Assembly (NCBI RefSeq): GCF_003018255.1
Contig: NZ_CP027440.1
Length of the DNA: 64,000 nt
Source of the DNA: Escherichia coli
GTDB taxonomy: Bacteria; Pseudomonadota; Gammaproteobacteria; Enterobacterales; Enterobacteriaceae
Reading direction: 5' to 3' (one strand)
Positions 1 through 14,771 of this stretch are shown piece after piece. Numbering within the stretch: the stretch's first letter is position 1; each line of letters opens with the position of its first letter. Both the position numbers and the translations under genes were made by a program. The notes below the pieces were generated by a model. The model made no database searches and was not told the origin of the DNA. It saw only the letters and a list, made by a program, of their open reading frames with translations.

Positions 1-180
1 CAACGCTCGTCCTACTTCCGATGCCGGGACAGAAAAAGAACCCTGCATCAGACCGAATATCAGTATTCCAACCGCAAACAGAAACAGCCCACCAAGCAAC
101 AGCAGATTTTTAGGGCGTACCAGTGTCGAAAACTTACCAACACGTAGTGGGCGTAGCCCGACGTTCATTATCCGACTCAT
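1..180 (-). CDS. iron-siderophore ABC transporter permease (FecCD family), 5' part only; gene runs off the window start
   Basis: Minus-strand ATG at 180-178 overlaps the TGA stop (179-177) of the upstream permease. Translation MSRIMNVGLRPLRVGKFSTLVRPKNLLLLGGLFLFAVGILIFGLMQG is a typical hydrophobic FecCD N-terminus. Absent from the ORF track because it has no in-window stop. Confidence 0.5.
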   Translation of the reverse strand, partial: MSRIMNVGLRPLRVGKFSTLVRPKNLLLLGGLFLFAVGILIFGLMQGSFSVPASEVGRAL

Positions 181-1160
181 TTGAACATCCTCGTCGCCAT
201 AATGACAAAAACAGGCGCACCAACTAACGCCGTCATGACACCGGTCGCTAACTCATGGGGCGTGAAAAGCGTCCGGGCAATAATATCTGCCAGTAATAAC
301 AAAAGTGCGCCGACACAAGCTGAAAGAGGGAGCAGAACGCGCAGATCCGCTGATACCAGACGCCGGACAATCTGCGGTACCAACAGGCCGACAAAACCAA
401 TGGGGCCAGCAATCGATACGGCTGCGCCACAGAGCAACGCGATCGCAAGCAGGGTAAATGTTCGCGTGCGGAGTACAGAGACGCCCAGCCCCTGCGCCAT
501 GCGATCGCCCAGTGCCAACATGTTAAGGTAGGGTGCAAGGTAAAGGGCTAACACAAATCCCCCCAGAGAAAACCAGGCGGACGTACCCAGCGTCGCCCAA
601 TCCTGCCCCGCTAAATCACCTGCTAGCCATGTCCGCATCGCCAGCAGTGTTTGTTCGTCAAGAATCAGGATTGCAGCCGTTATTGAGGACACGAACGCCG
701 ATAGCGCCACGCCGCATAAAGTAACTTTCATTGGCGTTACCCCTGAACGCCCTGCGGAGGAAAGCAGCAATATCAACAGGAACAATAACGCGCCCCCCGT
801 AGATGCCAGCAGTGGGCGTCCAACCGGAAAGGCCAGTCCAAGCGCACTGGCGGCAACGACAGCAAGAGCGGCTCCGGCATTTAAGCCTAAAATATGTGGC
901 TCCCCCAATGGGTTACGAATGACAGCCTGCAACAAAGCACCAGCAACACCAAGAGAAGCACCGGTAAGCAATGCTGCCGCTAAACGCGGCAAACGGAGTC
1001 TTACAATTACGTTGTGATCGAAGTTTTGCGGATCAAAATGAAGAAATGCCTGCAACACCGTTTGTGGTGCAATAAATCGGGCACCAATCCCTGGATATAC
1101 CACGCATCCCACCAGCAGTAAGGCGAGGAAAATTACAGTAACCAGCCCTGTGCGCATCAT
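177..1160 (-). CDS. iron-siderophore/B12-type ABC transporter permease (FecCD family)
   Basis: 327 aa polytopic membrane protein with FecCD-like C-terminal region (GAPVFV...); ATGA overlap with the upstream ATPase gene and with the next permease. Confidence 0.85.
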   Translation of the reverse strand: MMRTGLVTVIFLALLLVGCVVYPGIGARFIAPQTVLQAFLHFDPQNFDHNVIVRLRLPRLAAALLTGASLGVAGALLQAVIRNPLGEPHILGLNAGAALAVVAASALGLAFPVGRPLLASTGGALLFLLILLLSSAGRSGVTPMKVTLCGVALSAFVSSITAAILILDEQTLLAMRTWLAGDLAGQDWATLGTSAWFSLGGFVLALYLAPYLNMLALGDRMAQGLGVSVLRTRTFTLLAIALLCGAAVSIAGPIGFVGLLVPQIVRRLVSADLRVLLPLSACVGALLLLLADIIARTLFTPHELATGVMTALVGAPVFVIMATRMFK

Positions 1161-1966
1161 ACTTTTTCTACACCACGAAACGGCATGAAGAACGGCTTTC
1201 CCGTCAGAGGATTTATTGATGCGTGAACATCAACGTCAAAGACAGCTTTTACCAGCTCAGGCGTGCAATGCTCCCCCTCATTCAACACACGCACCACTTT
1301 CCCCTGGCGTAAAAATATCAACGTATCGCCATAATTGACGGCAAAATTCAGATCATGCAACACCACGACGACTGTACGCCCGTGATGACGCGTTAAATCA
1401 TGTAATAACTCAAGAATTTCAACCTGATAACGTAAATCAAGCCAGGTTGTGGGTTCATCCAGCAGGATATAAGGCGTCTTTTGCGCCAACACCATCGCAA
1501 TCCAGCAACGCTGGCGCTGCCCACCAGAGAGTTTTTCAACAGGTAAATGTGCAAACTCCTGCGTACCGGTTAATTTCAGGGCCTCTTCCACCGCCTGCTC
1601 ATCGGCGTCGCTCCATTGACGTATGAAATTTTGCCAGGGAAAACGCCCACGCGACACCAGTTCATAAACGGTTAAGCCCTCCGGCAATAATGGCGACTGC
1701 GGCAAGATCCCAAGTCTACGGGATAACGCTTTCGTTGGTTGCTCGTGAATCGCTTTGCCATCAAGCAATATCGAACCGCCCATAGGTTGCAAGATACGTG
1801 CAATGGTGCTGAGCAACGTCGACTTTCCACAGCCGTTTGCCCCAACCAGAACGGTCATTTTTTCTGTGGGAACGGAGAAAGAAACACCATCAACAATGAT
1901 CTTCTTGTGATACCCGGCAGAAACATTGTCGAGGATCAGCCCCTGCCCTTTTGCGTTATGTGCCAC
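1157..1966 (-). CDS. ABC transporter ATP-binding protein, FecE/FepC-like (iron-siderophore import)
   Basis: 269 aa; Walker A GANGCGKST, ABC signature LSGGQRQR, Walker B ILLDEPT; first gene of a minus-strand operon divergent from the TonB-dependent receptor. Confidence 0.9.
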   Translation of the reverse strand: MAHNAKGQGLILDNVSAGYHKKIIVDGVSFSVPTEKMTVLVGANGCGKSTLLSTIARILQPMGGSILLDGKAIHEQPTKALSRRLGILPQSPLLPEGLTVYELVSRGRFPWQNFIRQWSDADEQAVEEALKLTGTQEFAHLPVEKLSGGQRQRCWIAMVLAQKTPYILLDEPTTWLDLRYQVEILELLHDLTRHHGRTVVVVLHDLNFAVNYGDTLIFLRQGKVVRVLNEGEHCTPELVKAVFDVDVHASINPLTGKPFFMPFRGVEKV

Positions 1967-2218
1967 GTGTACGCCAACTTAATCAAAGACAAACAAAAAT
2001 AAAACTCATTCTCCTTTGAGAGTTTGACGCCACAAAATGTAGTAGTCAAGCAGTTAAAAGCCACACAAAAACAAGGTAAATAACAGGTAAAATATTTTTA
2101 TACATAAAAATAAAAACATTAAATATCAATAAATTAAAAGCAATCAAATTGTATAAGCCTTTCATAAAAACACATGTAGCAATTTTTTGTTATTTCTCAT
2201 TTACTACTACATTACTGC

Positions 2219-2241
2219 GTGATTGAATGATTCTCAATTAC
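2219..2241. promoter_or_regulatory. weak candidate Fur box in the divergent promoter region between ABC operon and receptor gene
   Basis: GATTGAATGATTCTCAATTA has partial hexamer similarity to the Fur consensus GATAATGATAATCATTATC (about 11 of 21 by eye), inside a 370 bp AT-rich intergenic region. Confidence 0.25.
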
Positions 2242-2339
2242 ATATCCGATGGCGAAATAACAAACGGATAGTGCTTAGTGAGCAATAAGAAACAATTTTC
2301 ACTCGCGACAATCCGCGAGTTTTTGGGATAACAGACTAA

Positions 2340-4481
2340 ATGGCTATGTTCACACCTTCATTCTCAGGACTCAAAGGTCGGGCGCTCTTTTCACTGCTTT
2401 TTGCGGCACCGATGATTCATGCAACAGACTCTGTAACGACCAAAGATGGCGAAACAATCACTGTTACAGCAGATGCAAATACCGCAACTGAGGCAACCGA
2501 TGGTTATCAACCTCTGAGCACCTCCACGGCGACATTAACCGATATGCCGATGCTGGATATCCCGCAGGTGGTCAATACGGTTAGCGATCAGGTTCTGGAA
2601 AACCAGAATGCGACGACGCTGGATGAGGCGCTTTATAACGTCAGTAACGTGGTACAGACCAATACATTAGGCGGGACTCAGGATGCTTTTGTACGCCGTG
2701 GGTTTGGCGCAAACCGGGATGGCTCCATCATGACCAACGGTCTGCGAACCGTACTTCCTCGCAGTTTCAACGCCGCCACAGAACGTGTGGAAGTGCTAAA
2801 AGGCCCGGCCTCCACGCTGTATGGCATTCTCGATCCTGGCGGACTGATTAACGTCGTGACCAAGCGCCCGGAAAAAACATTCCATGGTTCGGTTTCAGCC
2901 ACCTCCTCCAGTTTTGGTGGCGGCACTGGGCAACTTGATATCACAGGTCCCATTGAAGGCACTCAGCTGGCGTATCGCCTTACCGGGGAAGTGCAGGATG
3001 AAGATTACTGGCGAAACTTCGGTAAAGAGCGCAGTACATTTATTGCCCCGTCACTCACCTGGTTTGGTGATAATGCAACAGTAACCATGCTCTATTCCCA
3101 TCGGGACTATAAAACTCCGTTCGATCGTGGAACGATTTTCGACCTTACGACGAAACAGCCCGTAAACGTTGATCGAAAAATACGTTTTGACGAACCGTTT
3201 AATATTACAGATGGTCAGTCCGATCTGGCGCAACTCAACGCAGAATATCATCTCAATAGCCAGTGGACAGCGCGCTTTGATTACAGCTACAGCCAGGATA
3301 AATACAGCGATAATCAGGCGCGTGTTACCGCGTATGATGCAACGACAGGAACACTGACACGGCGTGTTGATGCAACTCAGGGATCTACCCAGCGTATGCA
3401 TGCTACTCGTGCGGATCTGCAAGGGAATGTTGATATTGCCGGATTCTATAATGAGATTCTGGGTGGGGTGTCATATGAATATTATGATCTTCTGCGTACA
3501 GATATGATTCGCTGTAAAAAAGCTAAAGATTTCAATATCTACAACCCTGTTTATGGTAATACCAGCAAATGTACAACGGTTTCGGCGTCGGACAGTGATC
3601 AGACGATCAAACAGGAGAGCTACTCAGCGTATGCACAGGACGCACTCTATCTGACCGATAACTGGATTGCCGTCGCCGGGATCCGCTATCAGTATTACAC
3701 GCAGTATGCGGGTAAAGGCCGTCCTTTTAATGTCAATACTGACAGCCGCGATGAACAATGGACTCCCAAACTGGGGTTGGTCTACAAACTGACGCCATCG
3801 GTATCCTTATTTGCCAATTATTCGCAAACATTTATGCCGCAGTCGTCAATTGCCAGCTACATTGGCGATCTTCCACCGGAATCATCTAATGCTTACGAAG
3901 TCGGGGCAAAATTCGAGCTATTCGATGGTATCACCGCAGATATTGCGCTGTTTGATATCCATAAACGTAATGTGTTGTATACCGAAAGTGTTGGTGATGA
4001 AACCATTGCCAAAACGGCAGGCCGTGTTCGTTCAAGAGGGGTAGAAGTCGACCTTGCGGGAGCATTAACTGAAAACATTAATATCATTGCCAGCTACGGC
4101 TATACCGATGCTAAGGTTCTGGAAGATCCTGATTATGCAGGTAAACCATTGCCGAATGTTCCTCGTCATACCGGTTCGCTATTCCTGACCTATGACATTC
4201 ATAACATGCCTGGCAATAACACACTGACGTTTGGCGGTGGTGGACATGGCGTAAGCCGTCGTTCGGCAACCAATGGGGCTGACTATTATCTGCCAGGCTA
4301 TTTTGTTGCCGATGCCTTCGCCGCATACAAAATGAAATTGCAGTATCCGGTCACACTGCAATTAAACGTCAAAAACCTGTTTGATAAAACGTATTACACC
4401 TCTTCCATCGCCACAAATAATCTGGGGAATCAGATTGGCGATCCGCGTGAAGTGCAATTCACGGTGAAAATGGAATTTTGA
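2340..4481 (+). CDS. TonB-dependent outer-membrane siderophore receptor (FhuA/FhuE-like)
   Basis: 713 aa; signal peptide; TonB-box-like ETITVTA near the N-terminus; plug-domain motifs; C-terminal aromatic residue (VKMEF) typical of OM beta-barrels. Confidence 0.9.
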   Translation: MAMFTPSFSGLKGRALFSLLFAAPMIHATDSVTTKDGETITVTADANTATEATDGYQPLSTSTATLTDMPMLDIPQVVNTVSDQVLENQNATTLDEALYNVSNVVQTNTLGGTQDAFVRRGFGANRDGSIMTNGLRTVLPRSFNAATERVEVLKGPASTLYGILDPGGLINVVTKRPEKTFHGSVSATSSSFGGGTGQLDITGPIEGTQLAYRLTGEVQDEDYWRNFGKERSTFIAPSLTWFGDNATVTMLYSHRDYKTPFDRGTIFDLTTKQPVNVDRKIRFDEPFNITDGQSDLAQLNAEYHLNSQWTARFDYSYSQDKYSDNQARVTAYDATTGTLTRRVDATQGSTQRMHATRADLQGNVDIAGFYNEILGGVSYEYYDLLRTDMIRCKKAKDFNIYNPVYGNTSKCTTVSASDSDQTIKQESYSAYAQDALYLTDNWIAVAGIRYQYYTQYAGKGRPFNVNTDSRDEQWTPKLGLVYKLTPSVSLFANYSQTFMPQSSIASYIGDLPPESSNAYEVGAKFELFDGITADIALFDIHKRNVLYTESVGDETIAKTAGRVRSRGVEVDLAGALTENINIIASYGYTDAKVLEDPDYAGKPLPNVPRHTGSLFLTYDIHNMPGNNTLTFGGGGHGVSRRSATNGADYYLPGYFVADAFAAYKMKLQYPVTLQLNVKNLFDKTYYTSSIATNNLGNQIGDPREVQFTVKMEF

Positions 4482-4488
4482 TCAAAAA

Positions 4489-4510
4489 AGCCCGGTATGT
4501 TTACCGGGCT
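4489..4510. terminator. hairpin between convergent receptor gene and GPH transporter gene
   Basis: AGCCCGGTA-tgtt-TACCGGGCT perfect stem, preceded by an A-run (T-run on the minus strand). Confidence 0.5.
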
Positions 4511-4588
4511 GAGACTGATGACAAACTCCAAATTGTCTGATGCGCTACGCCCATCAGATCTACCATAGAAATTCAATATATTAAATTT

Positions 4589-5929
4589 TCATATATTTTT
4601 AGGCTGTAAACACACCTTAATCTGTTCGTAATATTCATTATTAATCAGATAAAATCTCATGATGAGTCCGGTAATCAGGTTAAGTATCGCGGGAATGATC
4701 GTCATTAACAGGCAGATCCCCCACAACGCCTGTGGTGTTTGTTCTACGCCAGGTTGATAGTCCATAAACGCTAAAGCGATTCCGATAAACCCTCCCGCCA
4801 GTCCCATACCAAACTTTTGAAAAAAGAGAATCCCGCCAAATGCCAGTCCAGAAACACGTTGCCCCGTTTTCATTTCACCATAATCCACTGACTCAGCAAT
4901 GGATGCCCAATAAATGGGAAGCTGAATATCAGTCAGAAAGGTCACCACAATATAAAATGTAAAAGCTAACACTATAGAATTTGGTTGCACGAAATACATC
5001 GCACCACCCACCACGAACGCCAGTAATTGGGTATAACGAAATATTTTTATTTTGTCGTAGAGTCGAGTAAGCCAGGTGCAAGCGATCATAGCCAGAACAG
5101 AGGCGATCACGCCTGAAGTTAAAAACGGTGAAATTAAAGCATCCCCACCATTCAGGTAATATTTTGCATAATATGCAGCGACAGAGTTACGAATAATCCC
5201 GCCAAACATAATGATCGCAATTACAGCGCCCAAAATGAGCCATTGATCATTTTTGATCAGTAACCGAAACTGCGCGGCCATACCGAGACTGGGTTTTGGA
5301 TGGTAGATGCGCTCTCTCACGCTAAAAAAACAATACAGGCATAAACACGTTGCCAGAATTCCCATTGCCCCCATTGCTATTTGATAACCCAGTTGTACGT
5401 TATTCTTCCCAAGATACATTGCAGATAAAGGAACAATAATTGTTACGGCGAACATGGCAATTTTTGTCATAACAAAACGATAACCATTGGCGCTCAATCG
5501 CTCTTGTGGATCATCCGTGATAACGCTGATTAATGAAACATAAGGAATAGCGATTAACGTATAGGTCAAGGTAAGTAACACATAGGTAGCCCAAGCCCAT
5601 AAAAGCTTAACTGAATAATCGGTATTAGGTGTGGTGAACATCAACCAAATGCTTATCCCAAACGGTATTGACATAAAAAGCAACCACGGCCGATATTTTC
5701 CCCAACGTGTATTCGTTCTGTCTGTCATTGTTCCCACAACTGGATCAATCACAGCATCAAGGATACGTACAGAAAATAACAGAATACCTAAGTCGACGGG
5801 TTTCAGACCAAATACATCCGTGTAAAAATAAGTGATGATCATGGCCAAAGACATCATTACTATCGCGATAGCCATATCACCAGCACCAAAACCTATCTTT
5901 TCATTTATTGTAAGTTTCATACACAGCAC
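4589..5929 (-). CDS. GPH-family (glycoside-pentoside-hexuronide) cation symporter
   Basis: About 445 aa polytopic protein; N-terminal GPH/MelB-type signature YFYTDVFGL...RILDAVIDPVVGTMTDRTNTRWGKYRPWLL; true start may be the second Met (5920). Confidence 0.85.
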   Translation of the reverse strand: MLCMKLTINEKIGFGAGDMAIAIVMMSLAMIITYFYTDVFGLKPVDLGILLFSVRILDAVIDPVVGTMTDRTNTRWGKYRPWLLFMSIPFGISIWLMFTTPNTDYSVKLLWAWATYVLLTLTYTLIAIPYVSLISVITDDPQERLSANGYRFVMTKIAMFAVTIIVPLSAMYLGKNNVQLGYQIAMGAMGILATCLCLYCFFSVRERIYHPKPSLGMAAQFRLLIKNDQWLILGAVIAIIMFGGIIRNSVAAYYAKYYLNGGDALISPFLTSGVIASVLAMIACTWLTRLYDKIKIFRYTQLLAFVVGGAMYFVQPNSIVLAFTFYIVVTFLTDIQLPIYWASIAESVDYGEMKTGQRVSGLAFGGILFFQKFGMGLAGGFIGIALAFMDYQPGVEQTPQALWGICLLMTIIPAILNLITGLIMRFYLINNEYYEQIKVCLQPKNI

Positions 5930-6010
5930 TCATTGATTACGTGAACTTATATTAAAAACAAATATATCTGAACTCATTCAGCACATAACTTTACGAGTGA
6001 GCATAAATGC

Positions 6011-6025
6011 ATTGGTTGATACCAC
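6011..6025. promoter_or_regulatory. candidate operator dyad TTGGT-N4-ACCAC (site 1)
   Basis: ATTGGTTGATACCAC in the divergent intergenic region, about 90 bp upstream of the GPH transporter start; same dyad ends as site 2. Confidence 0.35.
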
Positions 6026-6173
6026 AACAAACCATTGAGTCAATATTGAGCAACATCACATAAAAACCAATTTCACTTAATCTCATGATTTATATATTTA
6101 ATTGTGGTTTTTTCTGTTTTATGTCACAGATAGTGAACAAGCACCATGCGTAATAAAAGTTAAAGAATGTAGA

Positions 6174-6188
6174 GTTGGTATCAACCAC
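6174..6188. promoter_or_regulatory. candidate operator dyad TTGGT-N4-ACCAC (site 2)
   Basis: GTTGGTATCAACCAC just upstream of the RBS of the GntR-family gene; the central 4 nt are the reverse complement of site 1. Confidence 0.35.
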
Positions 6189-6206
6189 TTGAAATGAGGC
6201 TTTGTC

Positions 6207-6959
6207 ATGATAAAAATTTATAAAGCCAGTAAAGGTCAGCTAAAGCATCGTGAAATCTTTGATGAAATAAAGAAAAAAGTAGATAACGGTGAATGGAAAG
6301 AAGGCAAAGCCATACCGACAGAAAGGGAATTGTCAGAATATTATTTAAGTAGCAGAACAACTATTCGAAAGGCAATAGAAAGTCTTAAACAACGCGGCTA
6401 CCTGCATAGTGTCCACGGGCAAGGAACATTTGTATTGCCTTCTCGTAGTAGAGAAAATCATTTATTGCATAGTTTTACCGACGATATTAAAGCTCGAGGT
6501 GGTATACCAGCACAGAATATTCTTGAGATAGGCTATGTTCCTGTCAGTGATGTTATCAGAAAAAATCTCGACCTGGATATCCATATCCAAACCGTATTCT
6601 GTATAAAACGCGTTCGCTATATGGGAAGTACCCCCCTGGGTATTCAGACATCATGGCTTGCATTAAATGACAGGCAAGAAATAACCCAAGAAGATCTGCT
6701 GGCGACGGGTTCGCTCTATATTTTACTGGAAGAAAAACTCGCTATTAAACCTTTAGAAGCAACAGAAATTATCTCTGCCCGGCTTCCCTCGCCCCTTGAG
6801 CGTCAATTACTGGAACTGACTGCCGATGATGTCGTATTAAGTTGTACCCGCGTCACGTTATCCGTGGAACGCAAACCAATGGAGTATGTAGAGATGGTGT
6901 ATCCCGCAAGCCGGTACTCCTACAAAGCACGAATTACAAAAGACAGTTTTAGCGTGTAA
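6207..6959 (+). CDS. GntR-family transcriptional regulator, HutC/FrlR-like (HTH plus UTRA-type C-terminal domain)
   Basis: 250 aa; N-terminal GntR HTH pattern (ERELSEYYLSSRTTIRKAIESL...GYL.SVHGQGTFV); first gene of a tightly packed co-directional array. Confidence 0.85.
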   Translation: MIKIYKASKGQLKHREIFDEIKKKVDNGEWKEGKAIPTERELSEYYLSSRTTIRKAIESLKQRGYLHSVHGQGTFVLPSRSRENHLLHSFTDDIKARGGIPAQNILEIGYVPVSDVIRKNLDLDIHIQTVFCIKRVRYMGSTPLGIQTSWLALNDRQEITQEDLLATGSLYILLEEKLAIKPLEATEIISARLPSPLERQLLELTADDVVLSCTRVTLSVERKPMEYVEMVYPASRYSYKARITKDSFSV

Positions 6960-6972
6960 CAGAGAGAATATT

Positions 6973-8049
6973 GTGAACAAAATAGAACAAGCTGTAATTT
7001 ATAACAAAATATTAGGTTCTTTAGCCTGCGCAGGTATGGGCGATGCATTAGGCGCAGCGACTGAACTCTACAGCATTGATGAAATAAAAGCTCAATGGGG
7101 AGGTTTTTTAAATGCCTTTGTTTCTCCTCCTGCCGATACATTCGCTGGCTCATTAAATGGTATTGCGGGACTTATCACCGACGATTCCAGCCAAATGTAT
7201 GTGTTTTCAGAAGGGTTAATTGAGGCTGGATTTGATAACTTCACCAATAATGACTGGTTAGCTTGTCTTCTGCGTTGGGCCGATATGCAGCCCTACGCAA
7301 ATTATAAAGGCCCCACAACAGAACAAATCGTCAAGGCACTAAAAGAAGGTAGACCAACAAACACCATTGGGCGTATTGGAACATCTTCTCGTCAGGCACC
7401 CAATGTCGGCACCACGAATGGAGCAGGAATGCGTGTAGCCCCTGCAGGATTGATCTGGCCAGGCAAGAAAGAAAAAGCGTGTCACCTGGCGCTAATAACT
7501 TGCCTACCTTCGCATGACACCAATATTGCGATTGCCAGCGCTTGCGCCATCGCTGCGGCGACATCACAAGCTATGTTACCAGAAGCTTCGCTCACATCAT
7601 TACTGGACGCCGCAATCTGGGGAGCGAATTACGGCGAACGCCTGGCCAAACAATATGCACGATGTGTCGCAGGGCCATCTATCGCCATGCGCATCCAACT
7701 TGCAGCGGACATCGCCAGACGAGCCAATGACCTGGAGTCTTGTCTGCGAGAAATGGAAGGTTTGGTTGGTAACTCTGTTGCCGCCCATGAATCCATTCCT
7801 GCGGCAATCGGTCTATTGCTGTACTGCAAAGGAGAACCCTGGGAAACCATTCATGCCTGCGCCAATATTGGCAATGACACCGATAGCATCGCTACGATGG
7901 CAGGCGCAATTGCAGGGGCATGGCGCGGTTTTGATGCGCTCCCTGAAGATAAATATGCCTTTTTCCGCGCCGTAAATAATAAAGATTTCGATATTGAAGC
8001 GATCGCATCGGGTCTGACATTGCTTGCATTAGAGGCACAGGAGAAATAA
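6973..8049 (+). CDS. ADP-ribosylglycohydrolase-family (DraG/ARH-like) hydrolase
   Basis: 358 aa; GTG start 14 nt after the regulator stop; N-terminal GSLACAGMGDALGAATE and C-terminal GNDTDSIATMAGAIAGA match the two metal-binding signature regions of the family. Confidence 0.8.
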   Translation: MNKIEQAVIYNKILGSLACAGMGDALGAATELYSIDEIKAQWGGFLNAFVSPPADTFAGSLNGIAGLITDDSSQMYVFSEGLIEAGFDNFTNNDWLACLLRWADMQPYANYKGPTTEQIVKALKEGRPTNTIGRIGTSSRQAPNVGTTNGAGMRVAPAGLIWPGKKEKACHLALITCLPSHDTNIAIASACAIAAATSQAMLPEASLTSLLDAAIWGANYGERLAKQYARCVAGPSIAMRIQLAADIARRANDLESCLREMEGLVGNSVAAHESIPAAIGLLLYCKGEPWETIHACANIGNDTDSIATMAGAIAGAWRGFDALPEDKYAFFRAVNNKDFDIEAIASGLTLLALEAQEK

Positions 8050-9047
8050 TGAACATGCCAGCCCGTACTCCTGTTATGCCATTAGCGCAAACTCGTGAGG
8101 AGATAAATGCTACGGCGGCATCGTTACGCCATTTGGCAGCTATCTGGGGTGAATGTTTTTCTACTTTTCAGCTCGATAAACGTGCTGTTGAACGCGTCTG
8201 TATAGTGGGATCGGGCGACTCCTGGACGGTGGCACTATGTGCCGCCGCCTGGCTGGGGAAATACACACATCTGTTTTGTTACGCATTGCAAACGTGGGAT
8301 TTTCTTCAGACTGATTTAACCCGTTATCAGAAAGAAACGTTAATCATTATTCTCAGTGCAAGTGGCAGACCATCAATGACCGTTGACGCCCTCTGCCACG
8401 CAGTATGCTCAAACGCGCAAGTGCTGGGTGTGACGAATTGCCCTGGAACACCATTTTGCGCAATAACAGAAAACATGCTCTATACATGGGCGAATAAGCA
8501 GGGTATTCCAACGCAAAGTAGTAGCGTCACACTTTATGCCCTCCTGCGCTTAGCGCAAAAATTATGTCCAGGCTTAACACCACTGCAGATTGAAGATGAT
8601 TTGGAAGGGAAATTTAGCCAGATTAATCAGCACTGGCAGCAAAAGAAGCGCCATTTTTACCAACAAAAAGAGATAACGTTTCTTGGGAGTGGCTTAAGTT
8701 GGGGACTGGCAATATCGGGGAGCAATTTACTTTCTTGCGGCCCACAGATTCGTGCGACAGCCCTTCCACTGGAAGAATTTTATCATTCATTACGCTTACA
8801 TCAGGCTGGTGTCGGTCAGCATTATATTTTACTACCAGCCACATCCTGCGAGTCCCCATTTTACCTTGCAACCCAAAAAGCAATTGTTGAACAGGGAGCG
8901 ACAGCAGAATTAATCAGTTTTATACCTGACGCCAGTGAGTCCAACAATTTATTTCTGGTCATGCAGTGGTTATATGAAATGTGCTGGAATTTAAGTTGTG
9001 ATTATGTCGACGCAGGCGGGCAACGCGTTAGCCATAGGGAGAAATAA
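8049..9047 (+). CDS. double SIS-domain sugar-phosphate isomerase/deglycase-like protein
   Basis: 332 aa; start overlaps the upstream stop (TAATG); SIS motifs VCIVGSGDSWTVAL...LIIILSASGRPSMTVDAL...VLGVTN and a second GSGLSW repeat; unusually Cys/Trp rich. Confidence 0.65.
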   Translation: MNMPARTPVMPLAQTREEINATAASLRHLAAIWGECFSTFQLDKRAVERVCIVGSGDSWTVALCAAAWLGKYTHLFCYALQTWDFLQTDLTRYQKETLIIILSASGRPSMTVDALCHAVCSNAQVLGVTNCPGTPFCAITENMLYTWANKQGIPTQSSSVTLYALLRLAQKLCPGLTPLQIEDDLEGKFSQINQHWQQKKRHFYQQKEITFLGSGLSWGLAISGSNLLSCGPQIRATALPLEEFYHSLRLHQAGVGQHYILLPATSCESPFYLATQKAIVEQGATAELISFIPDASESNNLFLVMQWLYEMCWNLSCDYVDAGGQRVSHREK

Positions 9048-9051
9048 GACT

Positions 9052-9966
9052 ATGAAGAAATTTGATGTCGCCGCTTTAGGCAGTGGAAATATAGATATTT
9101 TTTTATCTATCCCGTCACTCCCCACTCGTGGCGGTAAAGTTGTCGGGACACGTCTGGGTGAACAAGCTGGCGGCACAGTCGCCAACAGTGCCTGTGCGAT
9201 GGGACAACTGGGTCTCAATGTGGTATCTGTTTCATGTGTGGGCAATGATCATTCAGCCTCGATCATTCTTGATGGATTTAAAAAATATCATGTAAATTGT
9301 GATTTCGTTCAGGTAATTCCGGAATTGATTGCCAATACCGCGATTATCTTTATTGATGAATTAGGTGAAAAAACGTTGGTTTACTCGCCTGGTAGTGATC
9401 ATGAGTGGGATAAAGAAAAAGCCCTGCAGGCAATTGCGCAAAGCCGTTATTTTTATACGATGCCAGCAGATATCGAGAAATTTCGTATGCTGGCCGAATA
9501 TTCCCGTAGCCAGATGACAAAAGTTGTCGTTGATATTGAGCCTCATATCATTGCAACACCTGAACACCTTGCCAGAATTTTACACCTTGCTGATATTGCG
9601 ATATTTAATTATGACGGTTTTATTCGTGGCTATGCAACAGAGCCAGATTTTACACTTCTGCATGATATACAAGACGAGTATCAACTTGACGCTGTCGTGG
9701 TTACGCTGGATGTTAGGGGAGTAATTGCAGTCAAAGGCAATGAGCAAGTAAAAATAGGTAGTTATACAATTCCCGTTATTGATACCACAGGCGCTGGAGA
9801 TACTTTTAATGGTGCATTTGTTTATAGCTTAATAAAAAATATGCCCTTAATTGAAGCACTAAAATTTGCTTCTGCCACAGCAGCAATAAATATTACTGCA
9901 TTAGGTGCCAGAGGTCATCTGCCGACACCATCGGAGGTTAATCTTTTTCTTTCACAACACGACTAA
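9052..9966 (+). CDS. PfkB-family carbohydrate/nucleoside kinase (ribokinase-like)
   Basis: About 304 aa taking Met at 9052, 5 nt after the SIS stop (the ORF-track start 8998 is an upstream extension); PfkB signature DTTGAGDTFNGAF and N-terminal AALGSGNIDIF. Confidence 0.85.
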   Translation: MKKFDVAALGSGNIDIFLSIPSLPTRGGKVVGTRLGEQAGGTVANSACAMGQLGLNVVSVSCVGNDHSASIILDGFKKYHVNCDFVQVIPELIANTAIIFIDELGEKTLVYSPGSDHEWDKEKALQAIAQSRYFYTMPADIEKFRMLAEYSRSQMTKVVVDIEPHIIATPEHLARILHLADIAIFNYDGFIRGYATEPDFTLLHDIQDEYQLDAVVVTLDVRGVIAVKGNEQVKIGSYTIPVIDTTGAGDTFNGAFVYSLIKNMPLIEALKFASATAAINITALGARGHLPTPSEVNLFLSQHD

Positions 9967-9993
9967 AATCATATATATACAAAGGTAAATATC

Positions 9994-11118
9994 ATGAAAA
10001 TAAGATATGCCGCTATTTTTCTGGCATTACCGCTGTTATGCACAACAGCGCAGGCAAACAGTTTTCTTCATTATGCTGGGGAGTTTAACTTCCGGACGGG
10101 AGAAAAGCAGAACAATGTCACAATCGCGGGGCTATCAGCCATCACATTTGATGCAAAAAAAAATATTTTCTATGCTATTAACGATAGCAGAAACAATAAT
10201 AAAGAAGGAGATGCCAGTCTTTATACACTAAAAATACAGGTATCATCCAGGGGCATTGAGCAAGTGAATTTTCTCAACCAGCGTCCACTGCTTGATGCAA
10301 AACAGCAACCTTTCGTGACCAATACGGTGGATGCCGAAGGTCTGGCCCTGACACACAATGGTAAATCATTACTCTGGAGTTCGGAGTTAGGTGCTCCACT
10401 GCGTCTGAGCACTCTCGATGGCGTAATGGAGAAAGATTTTACGTCTTTATTTCCTGCTCGCTTTAATATTAGTTCTGACAAAGAGAGCAGCAATGGTATT
10501 CGCAGCGGCAACGCCTGGGAGGGCCTGACAGTTACACCAGATGGAAAATCACTTTTTATCGCCGTTGAAAGCAGCCTTAAACAGGATGGGCCTATTGCAA
10601 GTCCAATAAATTCAGGCACATCACGCTTACTGCAATTTTCTATAGATGCAGACGGTCGACCTTCAAAGCAATTGCATGAATATCTCTATATTACTGATCC
10701 TGTTCCGCAAGTGAGTAAGTTCGGTATTAATGATAATGGCGTATCCGAGGTCATGGCGCTGAATGATCACCAATTGTTGGTCATCGAACGTTCCGGCAGA
10801 AACGTCAGTGCTGGGTTCAATGACTGGGATTACTCTGTCAGAGTTTATATGGTCGATTTAACTGCTGCCAGCGATATCAAGAATATTGACAGTCTGCAAG
10901 ATTGGTCCAATAAATCCACGTTACAACCCGTCAGTAAAAAATTATTAATTGATTTTGCTGATTACACTTCCTCTGCGGATTGTATTGAAGGGGTAACCTT
11001 CGGTCCTCTGATTGATGGGCATACATCGTTAATATTTGTATCTGATAATAATTTCCAGCCCCATCAACAGACGAAATTTTATCTATTCATTGATAAGGAA
11101 AACAAACTTAAAATTTAA
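9994..11118 (+). CDS. secreted protein of unknown function, possibly phytase-like/beta-propeller esterase fold (tentative)
   Basis: 374 aa; N-terminal signal peptide (LALPLLCTTAQA); AT-rich codon usage; function inferred only from general resemblance. Confidence 0.5.
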   Translation: MKIRYAAIFLALPLLCTTAQANSFLHYAGEFNFRTGEKQNNVTIAGLSAITFDAKKNIFYAINDSRNNNKEGDASLYTLKIQVSSRGIEQVNFLNQRPLLDAKQQPFVTNTVDAEGLALTHNGKSLLWSSELGAPLRLSTLDGVMEKDFTSLFPARFNISSDKESSNGIRSGNAWEGLTVTPDGKSLFIAVESSLKQDGPIASPINSGTSRLLQFSIDADGRPSKQLHEYLYITDPVPQVSKFGINDNGVSEVMALNDHQLLVIERSGRNVSAGFNDWDYSVRVYMVDLTAASDIKNIDSLQDWSNKSTLQPVSKKLLIDFADYTSSADCIEGVTFGPLIDGHTSLIFVSDNNFQPHQQTKFYLFIDKENKLKI

Positions 11119-11213
11119 AGTCAAACTATAGATACAAAAACATTCTAATACATGGAATCATCAGATGGTGTATTCGATCACCAAAAATATATTTTATTCT
11201 GAAAGGGAATATT

Positions 11214-11948
11214 ATGAATTCTTATCTTAAAATATCACTTGCAGGAATAACAATGTTATCCTGCCTGTCACCTACACTAGTCTGTGCAGAACAGCCGCAT
11301 GGATTTATTGATTATCGCCATGAGTATCTTGATGATACTCGCACCCACGCGGACCGCGTTGAATTTGGTACATTTTTTAGTAATGGTATCGGTTTGATGG
11401 GAGAATTACGCTATAACACCGATGAAGGTGATAAAGATAAGTGGGACCCCTCACAATTTGGCAATAACGGAACAGGATTATCTGTTGTTTACCGCTTTAA
11501 GCCGCTGGATGACAAAAAATTCTGGTTAGAACCCATGTTCTGGCTTGATACCACGCAATATTGGTCAACTTACGAATATGGTCTTTCTGCGGGTTATGAC
11601 TTCAGCAAAGAATGGAAAGTTTCAGGTCGGTTTCGTTATGACATGGATAAAGCCACCGATAAATCCAAAGGTTATGGCAACGATGATCGTAATAACCGCC
11701 GTTACGATGTGTGGATCGACTATCGACCACAAAAAACCAACTTCCAATATCAGTTAAACCTGGTCTATTACAATAATGGTTATTTAACCTGGAATGATGG
11801 CCATAAAAACTATACCGCATCATTTAAAGTAGGGTACAAAATGGGATCGTGGATACCCTATATGAGTATTGCGGATTATAAAGGTGTGGATAAAACATCA
11901 AGTAATCGCCAAATCCGCTGGCGCTGGGGTCTGACTTATACTTTCTAA
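11214..11948 (+). CDS. small outer-membrane beta-barrel protein, KdgM/NanC-like porin (tentative)
   Basis: 244 aa; signal peptide; alternating aromatic/hydrophilic strands; C-terminal WRWGLTYTF ending in Phe as in OM barrels. Confidence 0.5.
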   Translation: MNSYLKISLAGITMLSCLSPTLVCAEQPHGFIDYRHEYLDDTRTHADRVEFGTFFSNGIGLMGELRYNTDEGDKDKWDPSQFGNNGTGLSVVYRFKPLDDKKFWLEPMFWLDTTQYWSTYEYGLSAGYDFSKEWKVSGRFRYDMDKATDKSKGYGNDDRNNRRYDVWIDYRPQKTNFQYQLNLVYYNNGYLTWNDGHKNYTASFKVGYKMGSWIPYMSIADYKGVDKTSSNRQIRWRWGLTYTF

Positions 11949-11961
11949 TCTGGAATAAAAA

Positions 11962-12831
11962 ATGAATAATAAATTTAAAATCATTCTCTGGATGATGCTC
12001 TCTGCTCTGCCTGCTTTATCTTACGCACAGGTAAAAAATATAGTTACTGGCGAATATAGTGCGGTCAGTAAAATTATCACAGAAAAGGAAACTCTCTATC
12101 CATCCGATAAGATATTATTGGTTTTTGACATTGATAACACGTTATTAACGAGTGGCACTCGCATTGGCGGTGATATCTGGTATCAATGGCAAACCGATAA
12201 ATTGCCTTTAAAGCCGGATGACTCGCAAAAAGTTCCTTGCCTGTATGAAAATACAATCAGTATGCTTTACGAACTTAGCCCTATGCAGCTTACCGAGCCA
12301 CAGTTACCGACAATGTTAAAACAGTGGCAACAAAAGCATACCGCTTTTGCTCTGACATCCCGTGCACCGGATACTCTCTTTCCGACATTGCGGGAATTAA
12401 AGCGAAACGGCATTGATTTTTCGTCTTCCGCACTCAGGAAGAAAGAGGATACTTTGCCACCCTTTGAAAAAGGGAAACTCAAACGGTCATGGCTGTACAG
12501 CCAGGGGGTATTTTTTTCTTCCGGGCAAGATAAAGGCGTAATTCTCGATTATATGCTGGATAAAATGGGGAACAAATATGACGCGATTGTTTTTATCGAT
12601 GACGGGCAAGCAAACATTCATGCGATGACGAAGATGTTCTCTAAGGATAAATGGTCCTCTACGGATTTTACCATTATTCACTATACCAGAGTGGAGGATG
12701 AGCTTATTAAACAACAAGGTGCAGTAATAACAACTGCACAAGCAGAAAAAATGGCTACGGACTGGAAAACTCTGGCTGGTTCGCTGGCAACACTATTTCC
12801 AGATCGTAATAAACTGTGCCCAATAAAATAA
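11962..12831 (+). CDS. secreted HAD-superfamily phosphatase (acid-phosphatase-like)
   Basis: 289 aa; signal peptide; HAD motif I LVFDIDNTLL and motif IV-like VFIDDGQAN. Confidence 0.55.
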   Translation: MNNKFKIILWMMLSALPALSYAQVKNIVTGEYSAVSKIITEKETLYPSDKILLVFDIDNTLLTSGTRIGGDIWYQWQTDKLPLKPDDSQKVPCLYENTISMLYELSPMQLTEPQLPTMLKQWQQKHTAFALTSRAPDTLFPTLRELKRNGIDFSSSALRKKEDTLPPFEKGKLKRSWLYSQGVFFSSGQDKGVILDYMLDKMGNKYDAIVFIDDGQANIHAMTKMFSKDKWSSTDFTIIHYTRVEDELIKQQGAVITTAQAEKMATDWKTLAGSLATLFPDRNKLCPIK

Positions 12832-12839
12832 TCAACGAC

Positions 12840-12868
12840 AACCCGGCAAAACACATGTTTGCCGGGTT
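12840..12868. terminator. bidirectional hairpin between the accessory operon and parE
   Basis: AACCCGGCAAA-acacatg-TTTGCCGGGTT perfect 11 bp stem between convergent genes. Confidence 0.55.
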
Positions 12869-12875
12869 AAGATTA

Positions 12876-14771
<1,896 letters not shown>

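Follow-up and report, generated by a model that had tools for sequence, protein, structure and literature searches.

A PF13449 propeller, a KdgM-family porin, and a DUF2608 phosphatase as the putative envelope front end of a nucleotide-scavenging regulon in Escherichia coli

The NAD/NMN route of Haemophilus influenzae consists of the OmpP2 porin, NadN, the class C acid phosphatase e(P4), and the importer PnuC: the porin admits the phosphorylated dinucleotide, phosphate removal in the periplasm falls to a UshA-family pyrophosphatase/nucleotidase and a HAD class C phosphatase, and the product taken up is the riboside. According to our analysis, the same logic may govern an accessory gene cluster of Escherichia coli (RefSeq assembly GCF_003018255.1, contig NZ_CP027440.1) contained in a stretch of 64,000 nucleotides, which is referred to here as the window and whose numbering is used unless another locus is named. 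At positions 9994 to 12831, the plus strand encodes a Phytase-like propeller of family PF13449 (hereafter PHY), a small outer-membrane channel of the KdgM family, and a HAD-fold phosphatase of family DUF2608. We consider it probable, while leaving real room for doubt, that these three genes are the envelope front end of a single GntR-controlled, horizontally acquired regulon which scavenges a phosphorylated nucleotide-derived riboside. As read here, the system follows a known strategy with a variation of its own and is built from two families without an assigned function, and PF13449 and DUF2608, both sizeable, are now placed in a testable pathway. The Haemophilus route is its nearest functional parallel, with the predicted structure of the DUF2608 protein being closest to class C phosphatases, but the E. 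coli locus has a KdgM-family channel in place of OmpP2, a symporter of the glycoside-pentoside-hexuronide (GPH) family or, in relatives, a Bmp-type ABC importer in place of PnuC, and the PF13449 propeller in addition. Moreover, the riboside would be catabolised by an ADP-ribosylglycohydrolase-family enzyme (ARH), a PfkB kinase, and a SIS-domain protein rather than salvaged, and the genes form one regulon whereas those of Haemophilus are scattered.

Other described systems share parts of this arrangement. The KdgM/KdgN system of Dickeya for oligogalacturonate and the NanC system of E. coli for sialic acid likewise place a KdgM-family porin beside a dedicated inner-membrane transporter and a repressor. 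The original prediction, made on the three envelope genes from the DNA letters, had drawn this likeness; it holds for the porin family but not for the substrate, since the accessory genes of the locus and its relatives indicate a nucleotide or riboside, and here the partners are phosphatases and nucleoside-type enzymes with no pectin or sialate catabolic genes. The cytoplasmic core has a counterpart in Salmonella stm4065-4068, which reportedly encodes a permease, a PfkB aminoimidazole-riboside kinase, an ARH-family protein, and a GntR regulator, and in E. coli yegTUVW, which comprises the same set. Going by that description, these loci share an ARH-family hydrolase, a PfkB kinase, a GntR repressor, and a transporter with the cluster described here, while lacking both the envelope module (porin, propeller, phosphatase) and a SIS gene. 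The nearest conceptual parallel is offered by the rus loci of Bacteroides, in which ribokinase(s), a transporter, and a regulator are accompanied by variable cleavage enzymes (nucleoside hydrolases, ADP-ribosylglycohydrolases, HAD proteins, phosphodiesterases) and which their authors propose to free ribose from diverse ribose-containing nutrients (bioRxiv 10.1101/574913). These are accessory loci like the present one; however, rus is of the Sus type (SusC/D) and belongs to Bacteroidetes, whereas the proteobacterial cluster relies on a KdgM/Tsx or TonB channel, the PF13449 propeller, and a fixed component set.

The three envelope proteins

The open reading frames (ORFs) of PHY, the porin, and the DUF2608 protein lie at positions 9994 to 11118 (374 amino acids, aa), 11214 to 11948 (244 aa), and 11962 to 12831 (289 aa), as originally predicted, and RefSeq annotates the same genes. 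The proposal that all three carry signal peptides is borne out by a heuristic scan, which found an n-region, a hydrophobic core, and a cleavage site in each, with one or two Lys/Arg residues among the first 8 positions, no acidic residue among the first 22, 10-residue Kyte-Doolittle maxima of 2.0 to 2.7, and small residues at positions -3 and -1. Cleavage is predicted after residue 21 of PHY (AQA/N), residue 25 of the porin (VCA/E), and residue 22 of the DUF2608 protein (SYA/Q), and the scan detected neither a later transmembrane-like segment nor a lipobox in any of them. These calls are reinforced by the orthologues: the envelope proteins of six other genera, among them Klebsiella, Kosakonia, Providencia, Vibrio, and Herbaspirillum, all begin with signal peptides or lipoboxes, while the adenosine-deaminase-like and nucleoside-hydrolase partners encoded in related loci showed no export signals. 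In the predicted AlphaFold2 model of PHY, residues 1 to 22 are the only low-confidence segment.

The phytase-like character suggested for the 374-aa protein is confirmed at the level of the Pfam family, since PHY matches PF13449 (Phytase-like) over its full length (E value of 2.8e-67, model positions 3 to 284 of 284). In calling the family "Esterase-like activity of phytase", Pfam refers to the beta-propeller phytases of Bacillus (PF02333); PHY has in common with them a secreted all-beta propeller and conserved acidic residues. An identity as a beta-propeller phytase is nevertheless ruled out by the five blades of the AlphaFold2 model (twenty predicted strands), where six are expected, and by the lack of a PF02333 match; no phytase was among the top fold matches either. 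The nearest solved fold is the uncharacterised C-terminal domain of YjiK, and Foldseek returned only generic propellers. PDB sequence searches for PHY and for the DUF2608 protein, with both single sequences and profiles, yielded nothing usable, NCBIfam holds no model for PHY or the porin, and no characterised member of PF13449 was found. Caulobacter ElpS, considered as a possible PF13449 protein, was dropped upon inspection of the ElpS paper, which reports no recognised domain, and the paper on the SRL island lists only an unrelated phytase-like ORF. PF13449 propellers are routinely misread as phytases in genome papers.

Thirty-seven positions are invariant in an alignment of 27 PHY proteins of the cluster type, and many of them hold Asp, Glu, or Arg: about 11 are acidic (D64, D113, E115, E131, E176, E192, D198, E265, D329, E332, and D351) and four are Arg (R66, R170, R211, and R266). 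This pattern fits a metal-dependent hydrolase without proving one, and we infer that PHY may act as a phosphoesterase. A non-enzymatic PHY, serving as a periplasmic binding, lectin-like, or structural protein while the DUF2608 protein or UshA does all the dephosphorylation, would agree with the fold matches just described and with the fact that loci endowed with UshA-like enzymes already hold a pyrophosphatase/nucleotidase. We deem it very unlikely, given that an Asp/Glu/Arg pattern such as that of the 37 invariant positions is typical of metal-dependent propeller hydrolases, that systems relying on a GPH symporter need no binding protein, and that the variants with a Bmp-type ABC importer have a binding protein of their own yet keep PHY. 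In Klebsiella pneumoniae, we also noticed a 442-aa protein (P0043), present on 21 contigs, in which a SIS domain (PF01380) and a Phytase-like domain are joined; a deletion or frameshift probably created this fusion, eliminating the kinase gene in some K. pneumoniae genomes, and, if real, the protein would join cytoplasmic and periplasmic domains.

The 244-aa protein, foreseen as a KdgM-like barrel ending in Phe, aligns with the whole KdgM profile (PF06178, E value of 3.6e-30, model positions 9 to 222 of 222). Its only PDB sequence match is Dickeya KdgM (4fqe, E value of 1.4e-11, residues 32 to 244 against 3 to 216 of 222); the same search, run up to an E value of 1, did not recover NanC. The full-length profile match, the match to a solved member, the signal peptide, the size of the predicted mature protein (219 aa), and the C-terminal aromatic residue (GLTYTF) together place it in the KdgM family. 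Its orthologues, with 34 to 80% identity, are encoded within the cluster both in Enterobacterales and in Vibrio.

For the 289-aa protein, the HAD phosphatase motifs read from the translation, DIDNT (residues 56 to 60) and DDG (residues 213 to 215), turned out to be conserved, and the protein matches DUF2608 (PF11019) with an E value of 5.8e-60. Across 36 sequences, down to 39% identity, D56, D58, T60, R134, K191, D213, and D214 are invariant and T132 and S133 nearly so; all four HAD motifs are thus conserved, and the predicted structure has the Rossmann-like core fold of the HAD superfamily. Two cysteines are also invariant in this alignment, which fits an oxidising compartment. The closest structural resemblance of the model is to class C acid phosphatases, a group of envelope nucleotidases. 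Membership of the class B/C acid phosphatases (HAD IIIB, PF03767; e(P4), AphA), judged by a significant profile match together with the bipartite DDDD signature (second motif GDxxxD), is not borne out, the Pfam Acid_phosphat_B match having an E value of 1.5. We looked for an absence of signal peptides and for assignments to unrelated families, and encountered neither in any of the three proteins.

Conservation and regulation of the module in related loci

When homologues of PHY, DUF2608, and ARH were collected and their contigs inspected, PHY, KdgM, and DUF2608 were seen to stay with the ARH, SIS, PfkB, GntR, and GPH genes through at least four gene orders, which are given here with (-) for the minus strand and slashes between blocks. 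Klebsiella (locus L002) has GPH(-) / ARH SIS PfkB PHY / GntR(-) / small ORF, adenosine-deaminase paralogue, KdgM, DUF2608, while Enterobacter sp. BIGb0383 and two metagenome contigs have PfkB SIS ARH GntR(-) / GPH Tsx PHY KdgM DUF2608. In Kosakonia and Trabulsiella, the order is GPH KdgM(-) / GntR ARH SIS PfkB PHY, followed by a UshA-type protein of 520 to 528 aa, scoring 664 and 650 bits on the NCBIfam UshA model (cutoff 600), and no DUF2608 was found within 10 kb. Providencia shows adenosine-deaminase paralogue, GPH, KdgM(-) / GntR ARH SIS PfkB PHY UshA-like (739 bits). Vibrio bivalvicida has 5'-nucleotidase PHY KdgM(-) / Tsx / GntR, Bmp-family binding protein, ABC ATPase, two permeases, ARH SIS PfkB, its 5'-nucleotidase being identified by Pfam domains, and Vibrio mediterranei keeps KdgM, PHY, and DUF2608 as a unit at a contig end. 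In Herbaspirillum, a TonB receptor gene is followed at some distance by GntR, Bmp, ABC permeases, ARH, PfkB, an IU-nucleoside hydrolase, and PHY, here a lipoprotein; the SIS gene is absent, and the linkage of ARH, PfkB, and PHY holds even so. Since the linkage survives repeated rearrangement across bacterial orders, the envelope genes are best regarded as a functional part of the catabolic cluster.

The slots of the module are filled in different ways. A UshA-type 5'-nucleotidase occupies the place of DUF2608 in Kosakonia, Trabulsiella, Providencia, and V. bivalvicida, and the replacements of the first three genera score above cutoff on the UshA model and below the cutoff of the nadN model. 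Because of this non-orthologous displacement in four genera, the DUF2608 protein is most likely a nucleotidase. The importer is a GPH symporter, linked to the cluster in six enterobacterial genera, or a Bmp (PF02608) ABC system, as in V. bivalvicida and Herbaspirillum; the Bmp family binds nucleosides. The outer membrane is served by KdgM with or without Tsx, or by a TonB receptor. The adenosine-deaminase paralogues of Klebsiella and Providencia score below the equivalog cutoff and are 42% identical to each other, and the IU-nucleoside hydrolase is an addition of Herbaspirillum.

Some neighbours of these loci deserve mention. The small ORF heading the Klebsiella envelope operon (L002, 12252 to 12419), between an operator pair of the kind described below and the adenosine-deaminase paralogue, encodes a very hydrophobic product of 55 aa with no Pfam hit. 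In V. bivalvicida, the cluster lies directly beside a complete Tn7-like module encoding TnsA, B, C, D, and E (L038, 13485 to 21062) and may be the cargo of a mobile element. A housekeeping-type adenosine deaminase (472 bits, cutoff 459) is encoded immediately downstream of the cluster GPH gene in Kosakonia (L011, 2318 to 3337), which may reflect a chance insertion site or a functional association.

A shared regulator is suggested by operator-like sites. In the window, the divergent promoter region contains two exact, mutually inverted copies of a 12-mer, TGGTTGATACCA at positions 6013 to 6024 and its reverse complement TGGTATCAACCA at positions 6176 to 6187, the latter 20 bp upstream of the GntR start codon; their starts are separated by 163 bp, the window contains no other exact match, and both are candidate sites of a GntR/HutC-type regulator. 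A TGGT-N4-ACCA pair is found in the equivalent divergent intergenic region of every enterobacterial locus, against a chance expectation of about 0.3 sites per 20 kb. Similar sites flank the divergent promoters of V. bivalvicida, and another lies 40 bp upstream of V. mediterranei kdgM. In Klebsiella, the pair occurs at both promoters, i.e., that of the catabolic operon and that of the separate envelope operon, which implies that the separately transcribed deaminase-KdgM-DUF2608 unit shares the regulator. Cross-genus linkage, the Klebsiella operators, and the replacement by UshA support the chain outlined in the original prediction, in which a porin, periplasmic dephosphorylation, symport, and cytoplasmic catabolism would follow one another.

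Cytoplasmic partners and the probable substrate

The genes upstream of PHY would supply the inner-membrane and cytoplasmic steps. The symporter (4589 to 5929, minus strand, divergent; RefSeq start at 5920) scores 348 bits on NCBIfam TIGR00792 gph (cutoff 231), the closest named model being YagG. The regulator (6207 to 6959, plus strand) combines a winged helix-turn-helix with a UTRA effector domain; its NCBIfam matches, of the HutC, PhnF, and TreR type, are all below cutoff, and its orthologues carry the Pfam GntR and UTRA domains. It may act as a repressor which senses a pathway intermediate. ARH (6973 to 8049, plus strand), predicted to be cytoplasmic, is the most conserved gene product of the cluster, with orthologues 53 to 85% identical and always clustered with PfkB. 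Its translation shows the stretches GDALG, ITDDS, and NDTDS, which we take to be the metal-site motifs of the family, and these TDD and DTD motifs, the PF03747 domain of its orthologues, and the PDB matches to MJ1187 (2.5e-21) and ARH3 (about 1e-9) place it among the ADP-ribosylglycohydrolases, in an uncharacterised branch. The double-SIS protein (8049 to 9047, plus strand), resembling sugar-phosphate isomerases/deglycases, is weakly matched by two NCBIfam models, those of the GlmS isomerase domain (3.6e-10) and FrlB (5e-4), and its best PDB match is the putative phosphosugar isomerase 3fkj; it evolves fast, with 28 to 49% identity between loci. The ribokinase-like PfkB kinase (9052 to 9966, plus strand) carries the DTTGAGD motif and, among NCBIfam models, matches ribokinase best, though its 148 bits fall short of the cutoff (300).

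We propose that the KdgM-family channel, helped by Tsx or substituted by a TonB receptor in relatives, admits an anionic phosphorylated compound. PHY would cleave a phosphoester or phosphoanhydride bond specific to the substrate in the periplasm, and the DUF2608 protein, as a nucleotidase, would remove the remaining phosphomonoester. The uncharged riboside would be imported by the GPH symporter; in the cytoplasm, ARH would cleave the ribosyl linkage, PfkB and SIS would pass the sugar to central metabolism, and the base or nucleoside part would be handed to adenosine deaminase or nucleoside hydrolase. The recurrence of Tsx, the Bmp importer, adenosine-deaminase paralogues, the IU-nucleoside hydrolase, and 5'-nucleotidase argues that the substrate is probably a nucleotide-derived riboside rather than an acidic sugar, and a phosphorylated nucleoside-type compound containing adenine is the probable form.

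An acidic sugar or oligosaccharide, of the kind handled by KdgM- or NanC-like systems, or a phosphorylated or glycated amino sugar, processed by an FrlB/FrlD-like SIS and kinase pair, would make the nucleoside neighbours coincidental. The porin and importer families would suit such a compound, as would the weak likeness of SIS to GlmS and FrlB and a weak match of PfkB to fructoselysine kinase, and the set of GntR, SIS, and PfkB recalls the frl and fra loci. We nonetheless regard this explanation as highly improbable: none of the loci examined contains pectin, uronate, or sialate enzymes (lyase, KduI/KduD, NanA/K/E), ribokinase is the best match of the kinase, nucleoside-specific components recur independently in at least five genera, and SIS, which shows the lowest conservation of all members, is missing in Herbaspirillum. 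Phytate, oligogalacturonate, and sialate were rejected as substrates, there being no matching catabolic gene in the loci examined.

If the cluster drew carbon from extracellular nucleotides or fragments of nucleic acid in general, with no special ribosylated substrate, PHY would be a periplasmic phosphodiesterase or nuclease-like enzyme acting on oligonucleotides or cyclic/3'-nucleotides, the DUF2608 protein a plain nucleotidase, and ARH an unconventional purine nucleosidase. The accessory genes (Tsx, Bmp, UshA-like nucleotidase, adenosine deaminase) would be identical, and the ribose-utilisation loci of Bacteroides likewise pair ribokinases with nucleoside hydrolases or ADP-ribosylglycohydrolases. 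We hold this to be rather unlikely, because Herbaspirillum and a marine island hold ARH and IU-nucleoside hydrolases together, so that ARH is probably not just another nucleosidase. The marine locus, found with an ARH orthologue of 51% identity, comprises five IU-nucleoside hydrolases, several PfkB, two SIS, and a nucleoside symporter, and no PHY. A dedicated propeller and ARH would also be redundant for ordinary nucleotides, for which E. coli already has UshA, AphA, CpdB, Tsx, NupC/G, and the Deo enzymes. Furthermore, the tight linkage of PHY with ARH, observed in eight genera, suggests a special bond. The marine island itself, which is large and lies on metagenome contigs (L042/L043, 44 to 21083), holds at least four PfkB genes, an ABC importer, and a nucleoside:H+ symporter, with SIS and PfkB paired.

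Within the scavenging of a nucleotide-derived riboside, which we favour, the co-occurrence of ARH with classical nucleoside hydrolases in two lineages makes it probable that two glycosidic or ribosyl units are present in the substrate. The best-fitting candidates, between which we make no choice, are NAD-type dinucleotides, which would yield nicotinamide riboside and adenosine, and ADP-ribose polymers or isomers, which would yield O-ribosyl-adenosine. If either is the source, nucleotides that serve the host as signals or cofactors would be a food source for enteric and plant-associated bacteria. Taken by itself, a regulon devoted to the breakdown of ADP-ribose-derived disaccharide nucleotides is distinctly unlikely. 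Possible sources in that case are poly(ADP-ribose) fragments, phosphoribosyl-AMP, and ribose-ribose-linked cyclic ADP-ribose isomers from TIR-domain enzymes; such enzymes of hosts, plants, and bacteria make cyclic ADP-ribose isomers. PHY would then act on these compounds as a periplasmic pyrophosphatase or phosphodiesterase of a new kind, the DUF2608 protein or UshA would yield O-ribosyl-adenosine, and ARH would cleave the ribose-ribose bond after import. If true, PF13449 and DUF2608 would each gain a first function, and no earlier bacterial pathway would have been shown to feed on ADP-ribosylation products.

Several observations weigh against a scavenging regulon of this kind. PHY homologues below about 40% identity stand alone, as do many DUF2608 genes, so that neither PF13449 nor DUF2608 is intrinsically tied to the pathway. 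No cluster surrounded the distant PHY homologues inspected, from Rhizobium, Carnimonas, and Flavisolibacter and at about 24 genome loci, or the DUF2608 gene of V. splendidus, and we excluded these genes as paralogues standing on their own. For the signal peptides, the evidence is a heuristic instead of a SignalP prediction, and literature searches, within the library covered, found no study on DUF2608, on the function of PF13449, or on this ARH subfamily or cluster. Finally, a simple ribose route leaves SIS unexplained, and an amino or keto sugar would agree better with its weak similarity to GlmS and FrlB.

Operon layout and genomic setting

RefSeq annotation and our ORF and family scans agreed on the gene set of the cluster, and the intergenic gaps among the plus-strand genes range from 0 to 95 bp. 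The widest of these, the 95-nt spacer between PHY and kdgM, is without significant structure (z of -0.4), and an Rfam scan and folding gave no RNA element there. The longest ORF of the kinase begins with a GTG at 8998, inside the end of the SIS gene; the RefSeq ATG at 9052 is the more likely start, on account of a GGGAGA ribosome-binding site, the RefSeq annotation, and the orthologue length of 304 aa. A GC-rich hairpin at positions 12840 to 12868, between the convergent stops of the DUF2608 gene and parE, has a minimum free energy of -18.6 kcal/mol (z of -5.1, with none of 200 shuffles folding as well) and is likely a terminator common to the two genes.

The eight genes constitute a low-GC accessory cluster adjoining parE (12876 to 14768, minus strand) in the E. 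coli chromosome, and parE is followed by yqiA, cpdA, yqiB, nudF, and tolC. The cluster is the right end of an island which is inserted between ygiN and parE and whose GC content is 0.36 to 0.45, against 0.52 to 0.56 in the flanks. The segment from 4500 to 12900 (8.4 kb) is present in 408 of 5,426 complete E. coli genomes (about 7.5%) and is chromosomal in every case; 404 of the 408 carriers hold it almost whole, and many carriers come from poultry, pigs, and humans. The cluster is a horizontally acquired, uncharacterised E. coli operon, whose most likely role is to dephosphorylate an extracellular nucleotide-like compound for import and breakdown of the riboside. Most genomes have one place matching the segment, and E. 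coli strain D10 (NZ_CP010157.1) is among the few with two.

The rest of the island (1 to 4481; also seen in L041, NZ_AP017610.1, 3407496 to 3414688) encodes a MurR/RpiR regulator, a siderophore ABC uptake system composed of a binding protein, two FecCD permeases, and an ATPase, and, divergent to the ABC genes, a TonB-dependent siderophore receptor (2340 to 4481). This iron locus may be the counterpart of the fit iron system known from extraintestinal E. coli. As it shares an island with a siderophore uptake locus, the cluster may contribute to niche fitness.

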